Shown here: positions 3,634 through 43,608 of the stretch, in pieces
Numbering within the stretch: the stretch's first letter is position 1
Layout of the letters: each line of letters starts with the position of its first letter
Sequence record: OR594179
Length of the DNA: 44,656 nucleotides
From: Escherichia phage vB_EcoM_SHAK7163
Strand: one strand, 5' to 3'
Notes under the pieces: model-generated
Databases searched by the model: none
The model's input: only the letters and a program-made list of their open reading frames with translations
Told to the model about the DNA's origin: nothing
Position numbers and translations under genes: made by a program

Positions 3634-6261
3634 ATGCAAGACCTACACGCTATTCAACTTCAACTTGAAGAAGAAATGTTTAACGGCGGTATCCGTCGCT
3701 TTGAAGCGGACCAACAACGCCAGATTGCATCCGGTAATGAATCAGACACGGCATGGAATCGCCGCTTATTGTCCGAACTAATCGCACCTATGGCGGAAGG
3801 TATTCAGGCTTACAAGGAAGAATACGAAGGCAAGAGAGGTCGTGCACCACGTGCATTAGCTTTCATTAACTGCGTAGGAAACGAAGTGGCAGCATATATC
3901 ACCATGAAAATCGTTATGGATATGCTGAACACAGACGTTACCTTACAAGCAATCGCTATGAATGTAGCGGACCGCATCGAAGACCAAGTACGTTTTAGCA
4001 AGCTGGAAGGTCACGCAGCTAAGTACTTTGAGAAAGTGAAGAAGTCACTTAAGGCTAGCAAGACTAAATCTTATCGTCATGCGCACAACGTAGCGGTAGT
4101 AGCTGAGAAATCTGTTGCTGACCGTGACGCGGATTTCTCCCGTTGGGAGGCATGGCCTAAAGACACCTTGCTGCAAATCGGTATGACCTTGCTCGAAATA
4201 TTGGAGAATAGTGTATTCTTCAATGGTCAACCTGTCTTCCTTCGTACCTTGCGCACTAACGGCGGAAAGCATGGTGTTTACTATTTACAGACCAGTGAAC
4301 ATGTTGGAGAGTGGATAACTGCATTTAAGGAACATGTAGCGCAGCTCAGCCCTGCCTATGCACCTTGCGTTATACCTCCCCGCCCTTGGGTATCACCTTT
4401 TAACGGTGGGTTTCATACTGAGAAAGTAGCAAGCCGTATTCGTCTGGTAAAAGGCAATCGTGAGCACGTCCGCAAGCTGACCAAAAAGCAAATGCCAGCC
4501 GTTTATAAGGCTGTTAACGCTTTGCAGGCAACGAAGTGGCAGGTTAATAAAGAGGTTTTACAGGTTGTGGAGGACGTTATACGTCTAGACCTCGGCTATG
4601 GTGTGCCTTCCTTTAAACCACTCATCGACCGTGAGAACAAGCCAGCTAATCCAGTGCCGTTAGAGTTCCAGCACCTGCGAGGCCGTGAACTTAAAGAGAT
4701 GCTAACGCCGGAACAATGGCAAGCCTTCATCAACTGGAAAGGCGAATGTACCAAGCTGTATACCGCTGAAACTAAGCGCGGCAGCAAATCGGCGGCGACC
4801 GTCCGCATGGTTGGGCAGGCACGTAAATACAGCCAGTTTGACGCCATCTACTTCGTGTATGCACTGGACAGCCGCAGCCGCGTCTACGCGCAATCTAGCA
4901 CGCTCTCTCCGCAATCAAACGACTTAGGCAAGGCATTGCTCCGTTTTACCGAAGGGCAGCGCCTTGATAGCGCTGAGGCGCTTAAATGGTTTTTGGTGAA
5001 CGGGGCTAATAACTGGGGTTGGGATAAGAAAACTTTTGACGTGCGCACCGCTAACGTGATGGATAGTGAATTTCAAGACATGTGCCGTGACATTGCAGCG
5101 GATCCGCTAACCTTCACTCAATGGGTAAATGCCGACTCCCCTTACGGCTTCCTTGCATGGTGCTTTGAATATGCGCGTTATCTGGATGCACTGGATGAAG
5201 GCACGCAAGACCAATTCATGACGCACCTCCCAGTCCATCAAGATGGTAGTTGTTCTGGTATACAGCACTACAGTGCTATGCTACGCGATGCAGTAGGTGC
5301 GAAAGCGGTAAACCTTAAGCCCTCTGACTCTCCTCAAGATATTTATGGTGCCGTTGCGCAGGTAGTAATTCAGAAGAATTATGCATACATGAATGCAGAG
5401 GATGCGGAAACCTTCACTTCTGGCAGCGTGACTTTAACAGGTGCGGAACTGCGTAGTATGGCTAGTGCGTGGGATATGATAGGAATCACTCGCGGCCTAA
5501 CCAAAAAGCCCGTAATGACACTACCTTATGGCAGCACACGTCTAACCTGCCGTGAGTCAGTGATTGATTATATCGTTGATTTAGAAGAAAAAGAGGCCCA
5601 ACGGGCTATTGCGGAAGGGCGTACCGCCAATCCTGTACACCCTTTTGATAATGACCGTAAAGACAGCCTTACACCTAGCGCAGCTTATAACTATATGACA
5701 GCTTTAATCTGGCCTTCTATTTCGGAAGTGGTTAAAGCTCCTATAGTGGCAATGAAAATGATTCGTCAGCTTGCCCGTTTCGCAGCTAAAAGGAATGAAG
5801 GCTTAGAGTATACCCTGCCTACTGGCTTCATCTTGCAACAAAAGATTATGGCTACTGATATGCTCCGCGTATCTACTTGCTTGATGGGAGAAATCAAGAT
5901 GAGTCTACAGATTGAAACGGACGTAGTAGATGAAACGGCAATGATGGGCGCTGCTGCTCCTAACTTTGTGCATGGTCATGATGCCAGCCACCTTATCTTA
6001 ACAGTCTGCGACCTTGTTGATAAAGGGATTACATCTATCGCAGTTATTCATGATTCTTTTGGCACTCATGCAGGCCGTACAGCCGACCTTCGTGATAGCT
6101 TAAGGGCAGAAATGGTGAAGATGTATCAAGGCCGTAATGCACTGCAAAGCCTGCTAGATGAGCACGAAGAACGCTGGTTAGTTGATACCGGAATACAAGT
6201 ACCAGAGCAAGGGGAGTTTGACCTTAACGAAATCTTAGTTTCAGACTATTGCTTCGCATAA
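3634..6261 (+). CDS. T7-type single-subunit DNA-dependent RNA polymerase
   Basis: 875 aa; motifs [43 protein letters not shown] and C-terminal ...SDYCFA closely match remembered T7 RNAP ([22 protein letters not shown], ...FAFA). Confidence 0.97.
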
Positions 6262-20152: not shown

Positions 20153-20285
20153 GGGTATGGAGATGCTTGAGATGATTCTCAAGCCTTCTTCTCCGAAGGT
20201 GACTAAGACCCACGAAGAATTAATCGTAGATGAAGTTAAGCGTTACATAATGGATTGTGTCAGAGCACAACTGGTGGTCCAATGA
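20103..20285 (+). CDS. hypothetical protein (60 aa)
   Basis: ORF only; overlaps both neighbours. Confidence 0.3.
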   Translation: MKNSMVQTKKKPTISFEGMEMLEMILKPSSPKVTKTHEELIVDEVKRYIMDCVRAQLVVQ

Positions 20286-20743
20286 TACGTCCAGCTTCAT
20301 TCCTAGATATTCCTGAGATTATAAACCTTGGGAATAAGTATGTGGAAGAGGAAGTCAAGGTTGTAGCCCATCACTCAGCCTCATGGAATGCAGAACAAAG
20401 TGCACATAACCTTTGTGCATCTCTTAGTAGAGAAGATTTATTCCTATGGGTTGCTGTAGATGAAGGGCGGATTGTAGGGTTCCTGTGGGCTGGCTATCAC
20501 GAGTTGGCCCCTTGGACACCTGTAATGGTTGCCTCTGACATTCTCTTTTATATTATACCAGAGAAGCGAGGAACCCTACTTGGTATGCGTCTCATCAAAG
20601 CCCTAAAGCAATGGGCTAGTGATAATGAATGCTCTGAGGTTCGCCTGTCTATCGCCTCTGGTATTAATGAAGAACGTGTCGGACGTATGTATAAGCGACT
20701 TGGCTTTGAACCGTTTGGCACTGTGTATAACCTGAAGTTCTAA
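20282..20743 (+). CDS. GNAT-family N-acetyltransferase
   Basis: 153 aa from first ATG; acetyl-CoA binding-like motif EKRGTLLGMRLIKAL and C-terminal YKRLGFEP. Confidence 0.6.
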   Translation: MIRPASFLDIPEIINLGNKYVEEEVKVVAHHSASWNAEQSAHNLCASLSREDLFLWVAVDEGRIVGFLWAGYHELAPWTPVMVASDILFYIIPEKRGTLLGMRLIKALKQWASDNECSEVRLSIASGINEERVGRMYKRLGFEPFGTVYNLKF

Positions 20744-23510: not shown

Positions 23511-24719
23511 ATGTCTACACCGAATACTCTGACTAACGTTGCTGTATCTGCGTCCGGTGAGGTTGACAGCCTTCTCATTGAGAAGTTTAATGGTAAGGTC
23601 AATGAGCAGTACCTGAAAGGTGAGAACATTCTGTCCTACTTTGATGTACAAACTGTTACTGGCACTAACACAGTGAGCAACAAATATTTGGGCGAAACTG
23701 AGTTGCAGGTGCTAGCACCGGGTCAGTCTCCTAATGCCACCCCTACTCAGGCGGATAAAAACCAGTTGGTAATTGATACCACTGTCATTGCTCGTAACAC
23801 TGTGGCTCACATCCACGATGTACAAGGTGACATCGATAGCCTGAAACCAAAACTGGCTATGAACCAAGCCAAGCAACTGAAACGTCTGGAAGACCAGATG
23901 GCAATTCAGCAGATGCTGTTAGGTGGTATCGCTAACACCAAGGCCAAACGTAACAAGCCGCGTGTTAAAGGGCATGGCTTCTCTATCAACGTTAACGTAA
24001 CTGAGAGTGAAGCACTGGCTAACCCTCAGTATGTTATGGCTGCGGTAGAGTATGCTCTGGAGCAACAGCTTGAGCAGGAAGTGGACATCTCTGATGTAGC
24101 TATCATGATGCCGTGGAAGTTCTTCAATGCTCTGCGTGATGCAGACCGAATTGTAGATAAGACTTACACTATCAGCCAGTCTGGTGCAACCATTAATGGC
24201 TTCGTTCTCTCTTCTTATAACTGCCCTGTGATCCCGTCTAATCGATTCCCTACCTTCGCTCAGAATCAGGCTCACCACCTGTTGTCTAATGAAGATAACG
24301 GCTATCGTTATGACCCTATCGCAGAGATGAATGGTGCAGTTGCTGTTCTGTTCACTGCCGACGCACTGCTGGTGGGTCGTACCATTGAAGTGACTGGTGA
24401 CATCTTCTATGAGAAGAAAGAGAAGACTTATTACATTGACACCTTCATGGCTGAGGGTGCAATCCCTGACCGTTGGGAAGCAGTGTCTGTAGTTACCACT
24501 AAACGTAATGCAGCTACTGGTGCTGCTGAAGGTTCTGGTGATGATCACGCAACCGTACTGGCTCGTGCACAGCGTAAGGCTGTATATGTCAAAACCGAAG
24601 GTGCTGCGGCTGCATTCTCTGCTGCCCCAGCAGGTATCCAAGCGGAAGACCTTGTAGCGGCGGTACGTGCTGTAATGGCAAATGACATCAAGCCGACTGC
24701 AATGAAACCTGCTGAGTAA
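23511..24719 (+). CDS. major capsid protein
   Basis: 402 aa; strong SD TAAGGAG; own promoter and strong terminator as for T7 gene 10. Confidence 0.85.
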   Translation: MSTPNTLTNVAVSASGEVDSLLIEKFNGKVNEQYLKGENILSYFDVQTVTGTNTVSNKYLGETELQVLAPGQSPNATPTQADKNQLVIDTTVIARNTVAHIHDVQGDIDSLKPKLAMNQAKQLKRLEDQMAIQQMLLGGIANTKAKRNKPRVKGHGFSINVNVTESEALANPQYVMAAVEYALEQQLEQEVDISDVAIMMPWKFFNALRDADRIVDKTYTISQSGATINGFVLSSYNCPVIPSNRFPTFAQNQAHHLLSNEDNGYRYDPIAEMNGAVAVLFTADALLVGRTIEVTGDIFYEKKEKTYYIDTFMAEGAIPDRWEAVSVVTTKRNAATGAAEGSGDDHATVLARAQRKAVYVKTEGAAAAFSAAPAGIQAEDLVAAVRAVMANDIKPTAMKPAE

Positions 24720-38313: not shown

Positions 38314-38336
38314 ATTTACTGGACACTATAGGAGGA
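38314..38336 (+). promoter_or_regulatory. phage RNAP promoter
   Basis: ATTTACTGGACACTATAGGAGGA. Confidence 0.8.
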
Positions 38337-38469
38337 AGACCAAGAGAATAAAGGAATATTATAGGATAATATAGGATTACCTAGGTTATATAGGTACACC
38401 TTATTATGAGGGTACTCCTGTACCCTCTTCTTATCTACTTCATTATTTACTAGAAACAAGGAGTATAGA

Positions 38470-38751
38470 ATGGCTAATAATTATAGTGATCAACCACTAA
38501 CAGGTCGATATGATCGAAAGCAGGAGACGCCTGTAAGTGAAGCGTTAATGCTCCCTGTTGTTACAGAGGGGTCTATTAAGAAGAAAGCCAATGTTATCAA
38601 TGATGCAACCAAATCTGGTAAACAGAAAGCAGCAATGGTGTGTCGTCCTGTAGGTGGCACTCTTGAGATTGCCATTGCTACTGGCAGCAAAGAGGATGCA
38701 GATTGGTTGTCTGTTAAAATGGATGGCGTTGGTCTTATTACACCGGCTTAA
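38470..38751 (+). CDS. hypothetical protein, paralog 1 of a tandem triad (93 aa)
   Basis: SD AAGGAG; shares about 45-residue motif block (SGKQK.AMV...G....IAIA.GS...D.W) with the next two ORFs. Confidence 0.55.
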   Translation: MANNYSDQPLTGRYDRKQETPVSEALMLPVVTEGSIKKKANVINDATKSGKQKAAMVCRPVGGTLEIAIATGSKEDADWLSVKMDGVGLITPA

Positions 38752-38767
38752 TAAAGGAGAAGATAAT

Positions 38768-39055
38768 ATGTCTAAGTATGGCGATGCAGGTACTACTACT
38801 GGTCAGGCTTTTCGTGTAAAAGCAGTACAAACTATTGCAACTGCAATCCCTATGCCTATCGTGGCAGAAGCTGACCTTAAAAAGAAAGATCATCCAATTA
38901 ATATTGAATACCTATCTGGTAAGCAGAAAGGTGCTATGGTGGTTGTAGATAAAGGAGATAATAGCCTTTATATTGCTATTGCACGTGGTTCTGCACCAAC
39001 TGACCAGTGGGATGTAACTACTATGGAAGCTGAACCTGTAACACCAGGAGCTTAA
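38768..39055 (+). CDS. hypothetical protein, paralog 2 (95 aa)
   Basis: ATG after AAGGAGA (track ORF 38654 starts upstream inside paralog 1); LSGKQKGAMVVVDKGDNSLYIAIARGSAPTDQWDV. Confidence 0.55.
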   Translation: MSKYGDAGTTTGQAFRVKAVQTIATAIPMPIVAEADLKKKDHPINIEYLSGKQKGAMVVVDKGDNSLYIAIARGSAPTDQWDVTTMEAEPVTPGA

Positions 39056-39056
39056 T

Positions 39057-39749
39057 ATGCTGGGAGTAACAGGACAACGCAATAAGAATGTAGCCACCAA
39101 AGTAGTGGCTGATTTAGCTACTGCTGCTACTGTCGAGGAATTACGAGATCAACATAGCTCTATTAACCGTGCTGACCTTTCTGGTAAACAAGAAGGCTCC
39201 GCTGTTATTGTTAAGAAAGAAGATGGGAATTATTCTATCTTTGTAGCAACAGGAAGCAAGCCGACTGATGTGTGGAAAGAGTTGTCTCCAACAATACCAG
39301 AGCAAGAGATGCCTGCTGAATATATTGATATGATTGATGTTCAAATTCATCAAGATTCTGCAAGCAACTTACGTATAGACTCTTCTCGCACTAGTTTAAT
39401 ACAGACACCAATGTGGGATACTGAAGGTGAGTTGTTATTCCGTAATACACTAAGTGCAACATGTTCTTGTACTATTCTTGTTGTTGAGGGTGAGTCTGGT
39501 GTTCGTCAGGATTTTACTTTTAAGATTAATGGACTTTTAGAGCAGGAAGAGCAGTATTATGATATTGACACACTTATGTGCTCTATTCACTCTGCAACAA
39601 CAACTAATGGCCTTACTTTGTGTATGCCAGATGCTAAAAGTGCAAAGACTAATAAAGTGGTAGTTAAGATCGACACTATGCAGTCATTAGCTATGAGCTT
39701 TGATCTTAACTTCCTTGTAGAATGGACGTCACCAACGAGGTTACTATAA
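39057..39749 (+). CDS. hypothetical protein, paralog 3 with C-terminal extension (230 aa)
   Basis: SD AGGAG; N-terminal LSGKQEGSAVIVKKEDGNYSIFVATGSKPTDVWKEL paralogous to previous two; additional 150-aa C-terminal domain. Confidence 0.6.
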   Translation: MLGVTGQRNKNVATKVVADLATAATVEELRDQHSSINRADLSGKQEGSAVIVKKEDGNYSIFVATGSKPTDVWKELSPTIPEQEMPAEYIDMIDVQIHQDSASNLRIDSSRTSLIQTPMWDTEGELLFRNTLSATCSCTILVVEGESGVRQDFTFKINGLLEQEEQYYDIDTLMCSIHSATTTNGLTLCMPDAKSAKTNKVVVKIDTMQSLAMSFDLNFLVEWTSPTRLL

Positions 39750-40093
39750 TGCTAAATCAGTACTTCAAGCGTAAAGAATTTGCTTGCCGTTGTGGGTGCG
39801 GTACATCCACTGTTGATGCTGAGTTACTACAGGTAGTAACAGATGTGCGTGAGCACTTTGGTACTCCTGTTGTTATCACTTCTGGTCATCGCTGCGCCAA
39901 GCACAATGCTAATGTAGGTGGGGTTAATAACTCCATGCATCTTACTGGTAAGGCTGCTGACATTAAAGTGTCTGGCATATTACCTTCTGAAGTGCATAAG
40001 TATCTTACTAGCAAATACAAAGGCAAGTATGGTATCGGTAAGTATAACTCCTTCACCCACATCGATGTACGGGATGGTTGTGCGCGATGGTAA
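39749..40093 (+). CDS. endolysin, peptidase M15-type (zinc L-Ala-D-Glu/D-Ala-D-Ala peptidase fold)
   Basis: 114 aa; SGHRCAKHNANVGGVNNSMHLTGKAADI...FTHIDVRDG fits the M15 H..D..H zinc-binding signature; ATG overlaps upstream stop. Confidence 0.75.
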   Translation: MLNQYFKRKEFACRCGCGTSTVDAELLQVVTDVREHFGTPVVITSGHRCAKHNANVGGVNNSMHLTGKAADIKVSGILPSEVHKYLTSKYKGKYGIGKYNSFTHIDVRDGCARW

Positions 40094-41172: not shown

Positions 41173-43608
41173 ATGATTCAAAGACTAGGTTCTTCATTAG
41201 TTAAATTCAAGAGTAAAATAGCAGGTGCAATCTGGCGTAACTTGGATGACAAGCTCACCGAGGTTGTATCGCTTAAAGATTTTGGAGCCAAAGGTGATGG
41301 TAAGACAAACGACCAAGATGCAGTAAATGCAGCGATGGCTTCAGGTAAGAGGATTGACGGTGCTGGTGCTACTTACAAAGTAACATCTTTACCTGATATG
41401 GAGCGATTCTATAATACCCGCTTCGTATGGGAACGTTTAGCAGGTCAACCTCTTTACTATGTGAGTAAAGGTTTTATCAATGGTGAACTATATAAAATCA
41501 CGGACAACCCTTATTACAATGCTTGGCCTCAAGACAAAGCGTTTGTATATGAGAATGTGATATATGCACCCTACATGGGTAGCGACCGTCATGGTGTTAG
41601 TCGTCTGCATGTATCATGGGTTAAGTCTGGTGACGATGGTCAAACATGGTCTACACCAGAGTGGTTAACTGATCTGCATCCAGATTACCCTACAGTGAAC
41701 TATCATTGTATGAGTATGGGTGTATGTCGCAACCGTCTGTTTGCCATGATTGAAACACGTACTTTAGCCAAGAACGAACTAACCAATTGTGCATTGTGGG
41801 ATCGCCCTATGTCTCGTAGTCTGCATCTTACTGGTGGTATCACTAAGGCTGCAAATCAGAGATATGCAACAATCCATGTACCAGATCACGGACTATTCGT
41901 GGGCGATTTTGTTAACTTCTCTAATTCTGCGGTAACAGGTGTATCAGGTGATATGACTGTTGCAACGGTAATAGATAAGGACAACTTCACGGTTCTTACA
42001 CCTAACCAGCAAACTTCAGATTTGAATAACGATGGAAAGAGTTGGCACATGGGTACTTCTTTCCATAAGTCTCCATGGCGTAAGACAGATCTTGGTCTAA
42101 TCCCTCGTGTCACAGAGGTGCATAGCTTTGCTACTATTGATAACAATGGCTTTGTTATGGGTTATCATCAAGGTGATGTAGCTCCACGAGAAGTTGGTCT
42201 TTTCTACTTCCCTGATGCTTTCAATAGCCCATCTAATTATGTTCGTCGTCAGATACCATCTGAGTATGAACCAGATGCGGCAGAGCCGTGCATCAAGTAC
42301 TATGACGGTGTATTATACCTTATCACTCGTGGCACTCGTGGTGACAGACTTGGAAGCTCTTTGCATCGTAGTAGAGATATAGGTCAGACTTGGGAGTCAC
42401 TGAGATTTCCACATAATGTTCATCATACTACCTTACCTTTTGCTAAAGTAGGAGATGACCTTATTATGTTTGGTTCAGAACGTGCAGAAAATGAATGGGA
42501 AGCAGGTGCACCAGATGATCGTTACAAGGCATCTTATCCTCGTACCTTCTATGCACGATTGAATGTAAACAATTGGAATGCAGATGATATTGAATGGGTT
42601 AACATCACAGACCAAATCTATCAAGGTGACATTGTGAACTCTAGTGTAGGTGTAGGTTCTGTTGTAGTTAAAGACAGCTACATTTACTATATCTTTGGTG
42701 GAGAAAACCATTTCAACCCAATGACTTATGGTGACAACAAAGATAAAGACCCATTTAAAGGTCATGGACACCCTACTGATATATACTGCTATAAGATGCA
42801 GATTGCAAACGACACTCGTGTATCTCGTAAGTTCACATATGGTGCAACACCTGGTCAGGCCATCCCTACTTTTATGGGTACTGATGGTGTACGAGATATT
42901 CCTGCACCTTTGTACTTCTCAAATGACATCACTACCGAGGATGCTAAAGTTGGACACTTGACTCTCAGAGCAACTACCAGTTCCAACATTAGGTCTGAAG
43001 TGCAGATGGAAGGTGAGTACGGCTTTATTGCTAAGGCTGTTCCAAAGACTAACCCATCAGGTCAACGTTTACTTCTTTGTGGTGGAGAAGGGACTTCATC
43101 TTCCACAGGTGCACAGATAACGTTGCATGGCGCTAATTCAAGTAATGCTAAGCGTATCACTTATAACGGAAGTGAGCACCTATTCCAAGGTGCACCAATC
43201 ATGCCTGCTGTAGATAACCAGTTTGCTGCTGGCGGACCTAGTAACCGATTCACTACTATCTACTTAGGTAGTGACCCTGTTACCACTTCCGATGCTGACC
43301 ATAAGTATGGTATCTCTGGTATTGACACCAAGGTATTAAAGGCTTGGAGTCGTGTTGGCTTCAAACAGTACGGTCTGAATAGTGAAGCAGAGAGGAACCT
43401 TGATAGCATACACTTCGGTGTCTTGGCTCAGGATATTGTAGCTGCTTTTGAAGCTGAAGGGTTGGATGCCATTAAGTATGGAATTGTGTCCTTCGAAGAA
43501 GGTAGATACGGTGTGAGATACAGTGAAGTTCTAACCCTAGAGGCTGCCTATACTCGCCATCGTCTTGATAAATTAGAGGAGATGTATACCACTAATAGAA
43601 TCAGTTAA
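41173..43608 (+). CDS. tailspike: sialidase-like (endosialidase-type) capsule depolymerase with C-terminal autoproteolytic chaperone domain
   Basis: 811 aa; SD AAAGGAGG; N-terminal DFGAKGDGKTND; two Asp-box/BNR motifs SGDDGQTW (41626-41649) and SRDIGQTW (42370-42393); S-D-x-x-x-K autocleavage-type motif TSDADHK at 43288-43305. Confidence 0.85.
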   Translation: MIQRLGSSLVKFKSKIAGAIWRNLDDKLTEVVSLKDFGAKGDGKTNDQDAVNAAMASGKRIDGAGATYKVTSLPDMERFYNTRFVWERLAGQPLYYVSKGFINGELYKITDNPYYNAWPQDKAFVYENVIYAPYMGSDRHGVSRLHVSWVKSGDDGQTWSTPEWLTDLHPDYPTVNYHCMSMGVCRNRLFAMIETRTLAKNELTNCALWDRPMSRSLHLTGGITKAANQRYATIHVPDHGLFVGDFVNFSNSAVTGVSGDMTVATVIDKDNFTVLTPNQQTSDLNNDGKSWHMGTSFHKSPWRKTDLGLIPRVTEVHSFATIDNNGFVMGYHQGDVAPREVGLFYFPDAFNSPSNYVRRQIPSEYEPDAAEPCIKYYDGVLYLITRGTRGDRLGSSLHRSRDIGQTWESLRFPHNVHHTTLPFAKVGDDLIMFGSERAENEWEAGAPDDRYKASYPRTFYARLNVNNWNADDIEWVNITDQIYQGDIVNSSVGVGSVVVKDSYIYYIFGGENHFNPMTYGDNKDKDPFKGHGHPTDIYCYKMQIANDTRVSRKFTYGATPGQAIPTFMGTDGVRDIPAPLYFSNDITTEDAKVGHLTLRATTSSNIRSEVQMEGEYGFIAKAVPKTNPSGQRLLLCGGEGTSSSTGAQITLHGANSSNAKRITYNGSEHLFQGAPIMPAVDNQFAAGGPSNRFTTIYLGSDPVTTSDADHKYGISGIDTKVLKAWSRVGFKQYGLNSEAERNLDSIHFGVLAQDIVAAFEAEGLDAIKYGIVSFEEGRYGVRYSEVLTLEAAYTRHRLDKLEEMYTTNRIS

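Follow-up and report, generated by a model that had tools for sequence, protein, structure and literature searches.

The DNA analyzed here is a stretch of 44,656 nucleotides from Escherichia phage vB_EcoM_SHAK7163 (OR594179), hereafter the window, which covers nearly the entire genome of a K1E/SP6-like podophage (Vectrevirus, Molineuxvirinae). Three consecutive genes, here named A, B, and C, are located between the genes for the large terminase (TerL) and the endolysin. The gene order in this part of the genome is adaptor, small terminase, large terminase, A, B, C, M15 endolysin, holin, Rz-like spanin, and an 811-aa open reading frame (ORF, 41173-43608), which we take to be a putative tailspike gene. 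A DNA search with the segment 38300-39800 identified eleven sequenced Escherichia and Citrobacter phage records with 89-98% identity, and the A, B, and C genes are 92-98% identical to entries already in GenBank. The coordinates of the genes and of the nearby features are listed in Table 1.

Table 1. Features of the A-B-C region and its flanks in the window
Feature	Coordinates	Strand	Remarks
Phage-RNA-polymerase promoter, ATTTACTGGACACTATAGGAG	38314..38334	+	Exact match to the 21-nt consensus
Terminator-like GC-rich hairpin in the 5' leader, with a T-rich tract after it	38408..38427	+	Terminator scan
Gene A, 93 aa	38470..38751	+	Paralog with anchor domain only; type of K1-5/K1E gp41, SP6 gp42, Kp7 gp45
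Gene B, 95 aa	38768..39055	+	Paralog with anchor domain only; type of K1E gp42, SP6 gp43, Kp7 gp46
Gene C, 230 aa	39057..39749	+	Anchor, linker, and knob
Gene C, residues 1-76, N-terminal anchor with conserved MLGVTGQR arm	39057..39284	+	Hidden Markov model (HMM) domain 1-76 and alignments
Gene C, residues 77-87, flexible linker SPTIPEQEMPA	39285..39317	+	Predicted local distance difference test score (pLDDT) <50 at residues 79-83
Gene C, residues 88-230 and stop codon, beta-sandwich "knob"	39318..39749	+	PHROG 32357
Endolysin (Peptidase_M15_3), neighbor outside the family	39749..40093	+	Start overlaps the stop codon of C

An earlier note, made from the sequence alone, had described the three genes as paralogs, each with its own Shine-Dalgarno (SD) motif, and both claims hold. 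The motifs AAGGAG (38458-38463, gene A; 38754-38759, gene B) and AGGAG (39046-39050, gene C) are placed at normal spacing before the start codons. The listed ORF for gene B opens earlier, at a GTG codon, and its ATG at position 38768 comes after the SD motif. The similarity among the proteins is significant and far beyond chance in pairwise BLASTP comparisons, with E-values of 1e-11 between A and B (42% identity over 65 aa), 1e-11 between B and C, and 6e-6 between A and C. The conserved motif was also described correctly, but the shared block extends over approximately 80 residues rather than the 45 residues first estimated. This domain, here called the anchor, consists of an N-terminal arm with the motif TG(Q/K/R) and a core with the pattern SGKQ...A.G(S)...W, the columns of which are invariant in the family alignments. 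The A and B proteins contain the anchor only, while the C protein has the additional C-terminal domain of roughly 150 aa that had been pointed out, here called the knob.

The family, which was not recognized at first, is recognizable. By sequence, A, B, and C belong to a family that includes SP6 gp42-43, K1E gp41-42, and Kp7 gp45-47 and that corresponds to PHROG 2725, with E-values of 5.5e-37 (A), 4.6e-44 (B), and 5.2e-18 (C). The C protein also matches PHROG 32357 across its full length. A tblastn search with B yielded hits at 312 places in 176 phage records, and the copy number among related phages, which the note had proposed to examine, varies from one to three detectable copies per genome. 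The hosts of these phages include Escherichia, Klebsiella, Salmonella, Proteus, Vibrio, Pseudomonas, Pectobacterium, Aeromonas, Edwardsiella, and Shewanella. The idea of a recent tandem expansion was not borne out, as the A-B-C order is old and conserved, being common to SP6, Kp7, and metagenomic relatives. In a neighbor-joining tree, A, B, and C are placed in three separate clades. A and C are under purifying selection, with a ratio of nonsynonymous to synonymous differences (pN/pS) of 0.11 each relative to phage R4596. Gene B is near-identical to its counterpart in R4596 (pS of 0.015), while its neighbors A, C, and the endolysin gene have pS values of 0.25-0.57, which suggests from the sequences that gene B is a mosaic or recent recombination patch relative to R4596. 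A metagenomic protein of 95 aa (P0123) is chimeric, combining an N-terminal half of the A type with a C-terminal half of the B type, suggesting recombination between the tandem paralogs.

Evidence for an association with the virion comes from the Klebsiella phage Kp7 (Molineuxvirinae), in which the gene order is large terminase, gp45 (88 aa), gp46 (88 aa), gp47 (178 aa), and endolysin. The three Kp7 proteins, SP6 gp42 and gp43 (and gp44-45), and K1E/K1-5 gp41 and gp42 are homologs of the window proteins at the same locus and in the same order, and their types correspond one-to-one. The gp45 and gp46 proteins can be aligned residue by residue with A and B, and gp47 likewise with the N-terminal part of C, such that the distal domain alone differs; it is immunoglobulin (Ig)-like in Kp7 and a beta-sandwich knob without sequence relatives in the window. 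All three have been identified in purified virions by sodium dodecyl sulfate polyacrylamide gel electrophoresis (SDS-PAGE) and mass spectrometry (bioRxiv 10.1101/2024.05.19.594906), and virion association has thereby been shown for the Kp7 orthologs of A, B, and C. The depositors annotated gp45 and gp46 as "minor capsid protein" and gp47 as "minor capsid protein with Ig-domain". The Ig module of gp47 matches the capsid decoration protein pb10 (5lxk, 2.8e-16; 8zvi, 6e-17), but its matches, some of them with higher scores, also include tail proteins, a neck whisker protein, and other chains with Ig domains.

To describe the breadth of the family, a profile search was made against 1.84 billion representative proteins with E-values up to 1e-3. 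It identified 271 representative relatives, and domain architectures were scored among the best 150 of these. The first architecture is represented by proteins of about 90 aa with the anchor domain only. The second is that of approximately 42 proteins (256-319 aa) in which three anchor domains follow each other in tandem (detected as three copies in 25 proteins and as two copies in 17); none of the best 150 relatives contains more than three anchors per chain. In the third, an N-terminal anchor is followed by highly varied distal parts, and in 36 of the 37 single-copy relatives longer than 120 aa, the C protein of the window included, the anchor starts within the first ten residues. The distal parts contain collagen G-X-Y repeats in P0215 (23 repeats), P0251 (13 repeats), and an ORF at locus L007, and poly-Gly linkers. 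They also include an Sf6-type needle knob in P0237 (PF16532, 5e-43), a phi29 head-fiber module at the C-terminal end of P0234 (PF11133, 26.5 bits against a cutoff of 24.6, 5.2e-6), Ig domains in P0214 and Kp7 gp47, and an SGNH esterase in phage BUCT553 (a match in BFVD). In several sub-groups of the neighbor-joining tree, repeats from the fused proteins group according to their position in the chain, which indicates that the triplication is old. The contigs that encode the fused proteins are mostly short, and a scan of IMG/VR with one of them (P0124) identified no relative.

Family genes are placed directly downstream of TerL and upstream of the endolysin in the window, Kp7, Premi, SP6, R4596, and the loci L013 and L015. 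In PP99, HJG, L005, L007, and L016, only the position downstream of the terminase is seen or applicable. The content of the third slot differs among these phages. At L013, where TerL is 77% identical to that of the window, TerL is followed by an A-type protein (49% identity to A), a B-type protein (62.5% identity to B), a 38-aa ORF, a C-type protein with 23 collagen triplets, and the endolysin. The small ORF (5885-6001), placed between the B-type and C-type genes, has a lipoprotein-like signal (MRKLVIATLLALSLSSC...). A C-type protein of 438 aa occupies the slot at L015. The fused three-repeat genes are located directly after TerL in L005, L007, and L016, and a separate C-type gene follows the fused gene in L006, L007, and L016, resulting in four anchors. 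K1-5, K1E, UAB_Phi78, and Premi have A and B without C, and other phages contain a single copy of the family. In SP6 (AY288927.2, L011, 2798-3233), gp44 (81 aa) corresponds to a C-type anchor domain in truncated form, and the match of gp45 (55 aa) is to the final 48 residues of the C knob. These matches indicate that SP6 encodes A as gp42 and B as gp43, along with a disrupted C that has been annotated as two hypothetical proteins. Two further loci were recorded in other phages. An unannotated C-type ORF of 261 aa follows the small family member in Aeromonas phage HJG (L010, 3183-3965), and orf48 of PP99 (L009, 2346-2957) encodes an Sf6-type needle knob (PF16532, 1.8e-46) immediately ahead of the small family member, and no anchor domain was detected in it. 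Since C is swapped, absent, or broken across the relatives, the slot is best described as a variable and dispensable cassette behind a conserved anchor, a pattern that, by analogy, is typical of exposed binding proteins.

The AlphaFold2 (AF2) model of B has a pLDDT of 74 and contains a small beta/alpha domain at residues 30-85, preceded by an N-terminal arm that is disordered in the model yet conserved. In the model of C (pLDDT of 75.5), the anchor is connected through a low-confidence linker (residues 79-83) to an all-beta domain, and residues 1-20 again have low pLDDT despite their conservation. The predicted structure of the knob shows a fold-level resemblance to trimeric fiber heads, the heads compared being the R-type pyocin fiber tip, reovirus sigma1, the adenovirus knob, the receptor-binding protein heads of lactococcal and Listeria phages, and the Sf6 needle knob. 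The sensitive HMM and structure searches that the note had called for have thus provided the PHROG 2725 match and a predicted fiber-head-like fold, but no match in Pfam or PDB. Searches of PDB with sequences and profiles (A-, B-, and C-type proteins, two anchor profiles, and a knob profile) returned noise only, and the knob has no sequence relative in Pfam or PDB. The C-terminal domain of C has no Pfam match to the Sf6-type knob (PF16532), and a comparison by hhalign of the knob profile with the Sf6-type knob protein of PP99 gave a probability of 0.5%, so that homology between the two is unsupported. Likewise, none of A, B, and C has a Pfam match to the phi29-type module (PF11133), for which P0234 is the sole matching relative. 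The anchor has no sequence or fold match to any solved chain, a set that would include pb10 and Hoc.

These results suggest that A, B, and C are accessory proteins at the surface of the virion that are expressed late and built on a shared anchor of about 80 residues (probability of roughly 0.6). The broader statement that they are accessory virion proteins in which an anchor may be combined with a display domain is likely. Also in line with this reading are the promoter and strong SD motifs that the unit has for itself, the lack of membrane segments in all three proteins, and the purifying selection on A and C. In this anchor, the conserved arm has the sequence V/L-T-G-Q/K/R with basic residues after it, and the SGKQ...A.G(S)...W pattern belongs to a small core of beta/alpha type. 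The anchor would assemble as a threefold unit and dock on the outside of the particle, where the most likely site may be a T=7 HK97-type capsid. In such a model, A and B would be stubs or cement subunits with the anchor only, and C would be a short homotrimeric fiber, the knob of which may contact glycans on the host surface or in the environment weakly and reversibly, much as Hoc, pb10, or the phi29 head fibers do. The fused three-repeat proteins would represent single-chain pseudo-trimers of the anchor module. Their function may be in adhesion or in stabilization of the particle.

Collagen, the Sf6 knob, and the phi29 fiber are obligate trimers. The C-type proteins that carry such modules must hence be homotrimers, and since C shares its anchor with them, a trimeric state is fairly probable also for C. 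The fused chains, with three tandem anchors and never more among the best 150 relatives, are in keeping with a threefold unit. Docking on the capsid specifically is about an even bet. It is favored because of the Kp7 label, the match of the Ig module in Kp7 gp47 to pb10, the phi29 module in a relative, and the anchor-only forms, which make sense as cement or decoration proteins but not as fibers. Virion decoration, one of the options in the earlier note, thus gains support from the Kp7 orthologs in virions and from the fiber, knob, and Ig modules in distal parts, while a position on the capsid is something that we infer.

Several observations weigh against this interpretation. The virion evidence comes from Kp7, where it demonstrates presence but not position. 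The "minor capsid protein" label is the Kp7 depositors' own. No PDB chain has sequences of the family, and the entry 7y3t, solved for a close relative of the major capsid protein in the window, was matched via its capsid-protein chains only. The SGNH esterase as a distal domain and the names "tail fiber" and "tail protein" chosen by some depositors would fit a tail appendage equally well, and A, B, and C belong to the transcription unit for lysis instead of the block of head genes. Two other phage systems were considered for information about location. PhiM1, for which there is a complete cryogenic electron microscopy model, lacks a family member and therefore says nothing on location, and its helical "claw/paw" decoration proteins are unrelated. 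The "head fiber" of Gajwadongvirus and Tola could not be assigned to a specific gene.

Among known systems, the likeness to T5 pb10 and T4 Hoc lies in the combination of a small anchor with an exposed and dispensable adhesion domain. The C protein differs from them in that it has a knob rather than an Ig domain and an anchor without counterpart among the solved chains. Furthermore, pb10 and Hoc are monomers at the hexamer centers (PMC11440229), in contrast to the threefold signature of the family described here. The phi29 protein gp8.5, the collagen-like trimer SPP1 gp12, and Dec of phage L are accessory capsid proteins that form trimers, with a base that binds the capsid and a fiber that protrudes from it. 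The family resembles these through the PF11133 module in P0234 and the collagen modules in other relatives, but A, B, and C match none of them and the anchor is unrelated in sequence.

The main alternative is that the anchor docks on the tail adaptor, the nozzle, or the neck, with C as a side fiber or secondary receptor-binding protein and A and B as small adaptor or plug subunits. The distal modules are typical of tail fibers and spikes (the Sf6 needle knob, the SGNH esterase, and collagen-like tail-fiber repeats), the arm conserved at the N-terminal end is reminiscent of a docking peptide, the cluster is located just upstream of the tailspike region, and there are the tail names given to some homologs. 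However, the anchor-only proteins and the triple-anchor fusions without a distal domain are hard to explain as tail fibers. The Kp7 depositors, who also deposited structures of the Kp7 tail fiber (7xyc), chose a capsid label. One relative contains the phi29 head-fiber module, and the pb10 match of the Ig module points in the same direction, albeit with the tail, neck whisker, and other Ig chains among its matches. We consider a tail or neck location unlikely on balance.

An obligate 1:1:1 heterotrimer of A, B, and C, which would be a split version of the fused three-repeat proteins with a single knob per unit, is less probable still. It would account for three co-transcribed and tightly packed paralogs, the last of which is coupled by its stop codon to the start of the next gene, for their placement in three distinct clades, and for the relatives with exactly three fused repeats that cluster by position in several sub-groups. 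It was downgraded because of the collagen-bearing C-type gene in the A-B-C layout of L013, whose 23 triplets need three identical chains, and because of the loci that pair a fused triple gene with a separate C-type gene and so encode four anchors (L006, L007, and L016). The phages with A and B only (K1-5, K1E, and Premi) or with one copy are also at odds with it.

The third alternative is a non-structural role inside the cell, in regulation of lysis or in anti-defense, in which case the Kp7 proteins would be incidental in the virion preparations. A, B, and C are transcribed together with the genes for the endolysin, the holin, and the spanin, translation of C is coupled to that of the endolysin gene, and the accessory and variable gene content resembles that of counter-defense loci. 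All three Kp7 orthologs are nevertheless among the virion proteins identified, and the distal domains are of extracellular type (fiber, Ig, and knob). A 19-residue Kyte-Doolittle scan identified no membrane segment in A, B, or C, for which the maximum hydropathy is 1.08-1.18 as compared to 2.76 for the holin, and the lysis PHROGs match the downstream genes only. Scans of Pfam, NCBIfam, and PADLOC (E-values up to 1) gave no match for the three proteins, with PADLOC being a weak test as its models describe defense rather than anti-defense systems. The lysis-regulatory and counter-defense functions proposed in the earlier note are thus both unsupported, and we regard an intracellular role as very improbable.

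Finally, many copies of the family in GenBank, starting with SP6 genes 42/43 and K1E gp42, and PHROG 2725 itself are labeled "acetyl-CoA acetyltransferase". That the proteins are thiolases can be practically dismissed, as only this propagated annotation speaks for it, while A and B are a quarter of the length of a thiolase, the family proteins have no match to the thiolase domains (about 390 aa) or other models of Pfam and NCBIfam at E-values up to 1, and their predicted fold is unrelated.

One more specific conjecture can be made, to which we give a low probability. The anchor may be a new and structurally unsolved threefold capsid-docking fold, the three diverged copies of which (A, B, and C in the window, repeats 1-3 in the fused proteins) have been specialized for three non-equivalent environments in the T=7 lattice. 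A quasi-threefold axis, with its three quasi-equivalent capsid subunits, could provide such environments, as could local threefold sites of three classes. If true, the anchor would be a natural plug-and-display platform, on which knob, Ig, collagen, and esterase domains are exchanged between phages, thereby tuning adhesion.

The PHROG number of the family and the virion-protein label in one record are already known. New relative to the searched literature are the modular architecture, the three-repeat fusions, the predicted fiber-head-like knob, and the recognition that the common annotation is wrong; as far as the literature searches show, no structure or function of a family member has been published. 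Dozens of genomes of SP6/K1E-like phages and other Autographiviridae carry the genes, annotated either with a wrong metabolic function or as "hypothetical"; among these phages are candidates for therapy against K1 E. coli, Klebsiella, and Proteus. Recognition as a modular family of surface fiber or decoration proteins would correct these annotations. The genes are candidate determinants of particle stability or of adhesion to mucus, capsule, or biofilm that vary between near-identical phages. The small anchor, a domain family without a Pfam entry or a solved structure, is also a candidate for use in phage display.

The promoter that the earlier note had placed at position 38314 is confirmed as an exact match to a 21-nt consensus that occurs eight times in the window, with zero occurrences expected by chance. 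It aligns with the promoters that precede the homologous genes in R4596, SP6, Kp7, and Premi. The leader between the promoter and gene A (about 135 nt, 38335-38469) is retained in these four phages and in L013. It contains repeated (T)ATAGG motifs (approximately 38358-38400) and the GC-rich hairpin, the stem of which differs in its letters among related phages with the pairing retained. The hairpin is annotated as a putative terminator in MK373771, yet it is located downstream of the promoter.

The overlap of the C and endolysin genes at position 39749 was also correctly noted, as the TAA stop codon of C (39747-39749) and the endolysin ATG form the sequence TAATG. The endolysin has 114 aa from this start and contains a Peptidase_M15_3 domain (Pfam, 2.5e-32). 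An in-frame ATG further upstream, at position 39722, would overlap C by 28 nt, and a sigma-70-like match is located near this alternative start (39723-39750). We favor the ATG at 39749, because the resulting length is equal to that of SP6 gp46 and the homolog in R4596.

The best DNA match to the region is OR594181.1 (L001, "vB_EcoM_SHAK7704"), an UNVERIFIED record. Its feature table, which lists an "ocr-like anti-restriction" protein, an RNA polymerase, and others, does not match its own sequence at the given coordinates, and the ocr-like label was discarded as the table is unfit for that sequence. Its name, with a myovirus prefix, and its taxonomy (Kayfunavirus) do not seem right for an SP6-like genome either. 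An ORF of the window at 20255-20743, immediately before the portal gene, matches the acetyltransferase PHROG 1249 (3.3e-53). In the Kp7 paper, gp32, numbered just before the connector gp33, is listed as a "minor capsid protein" of the virion. The major capsid protein ORF of the window (23511-24719) encodes 402 aa, and the solved close relative in PDB 7y3t, for which the literature search turned up no publication, has 363 aa. Since the match to 7y3t covers only residues 1-361 (E-value of 3.6e-182), the capsid protein of the window appears to have about 40 extra residues at its C-terminal end.

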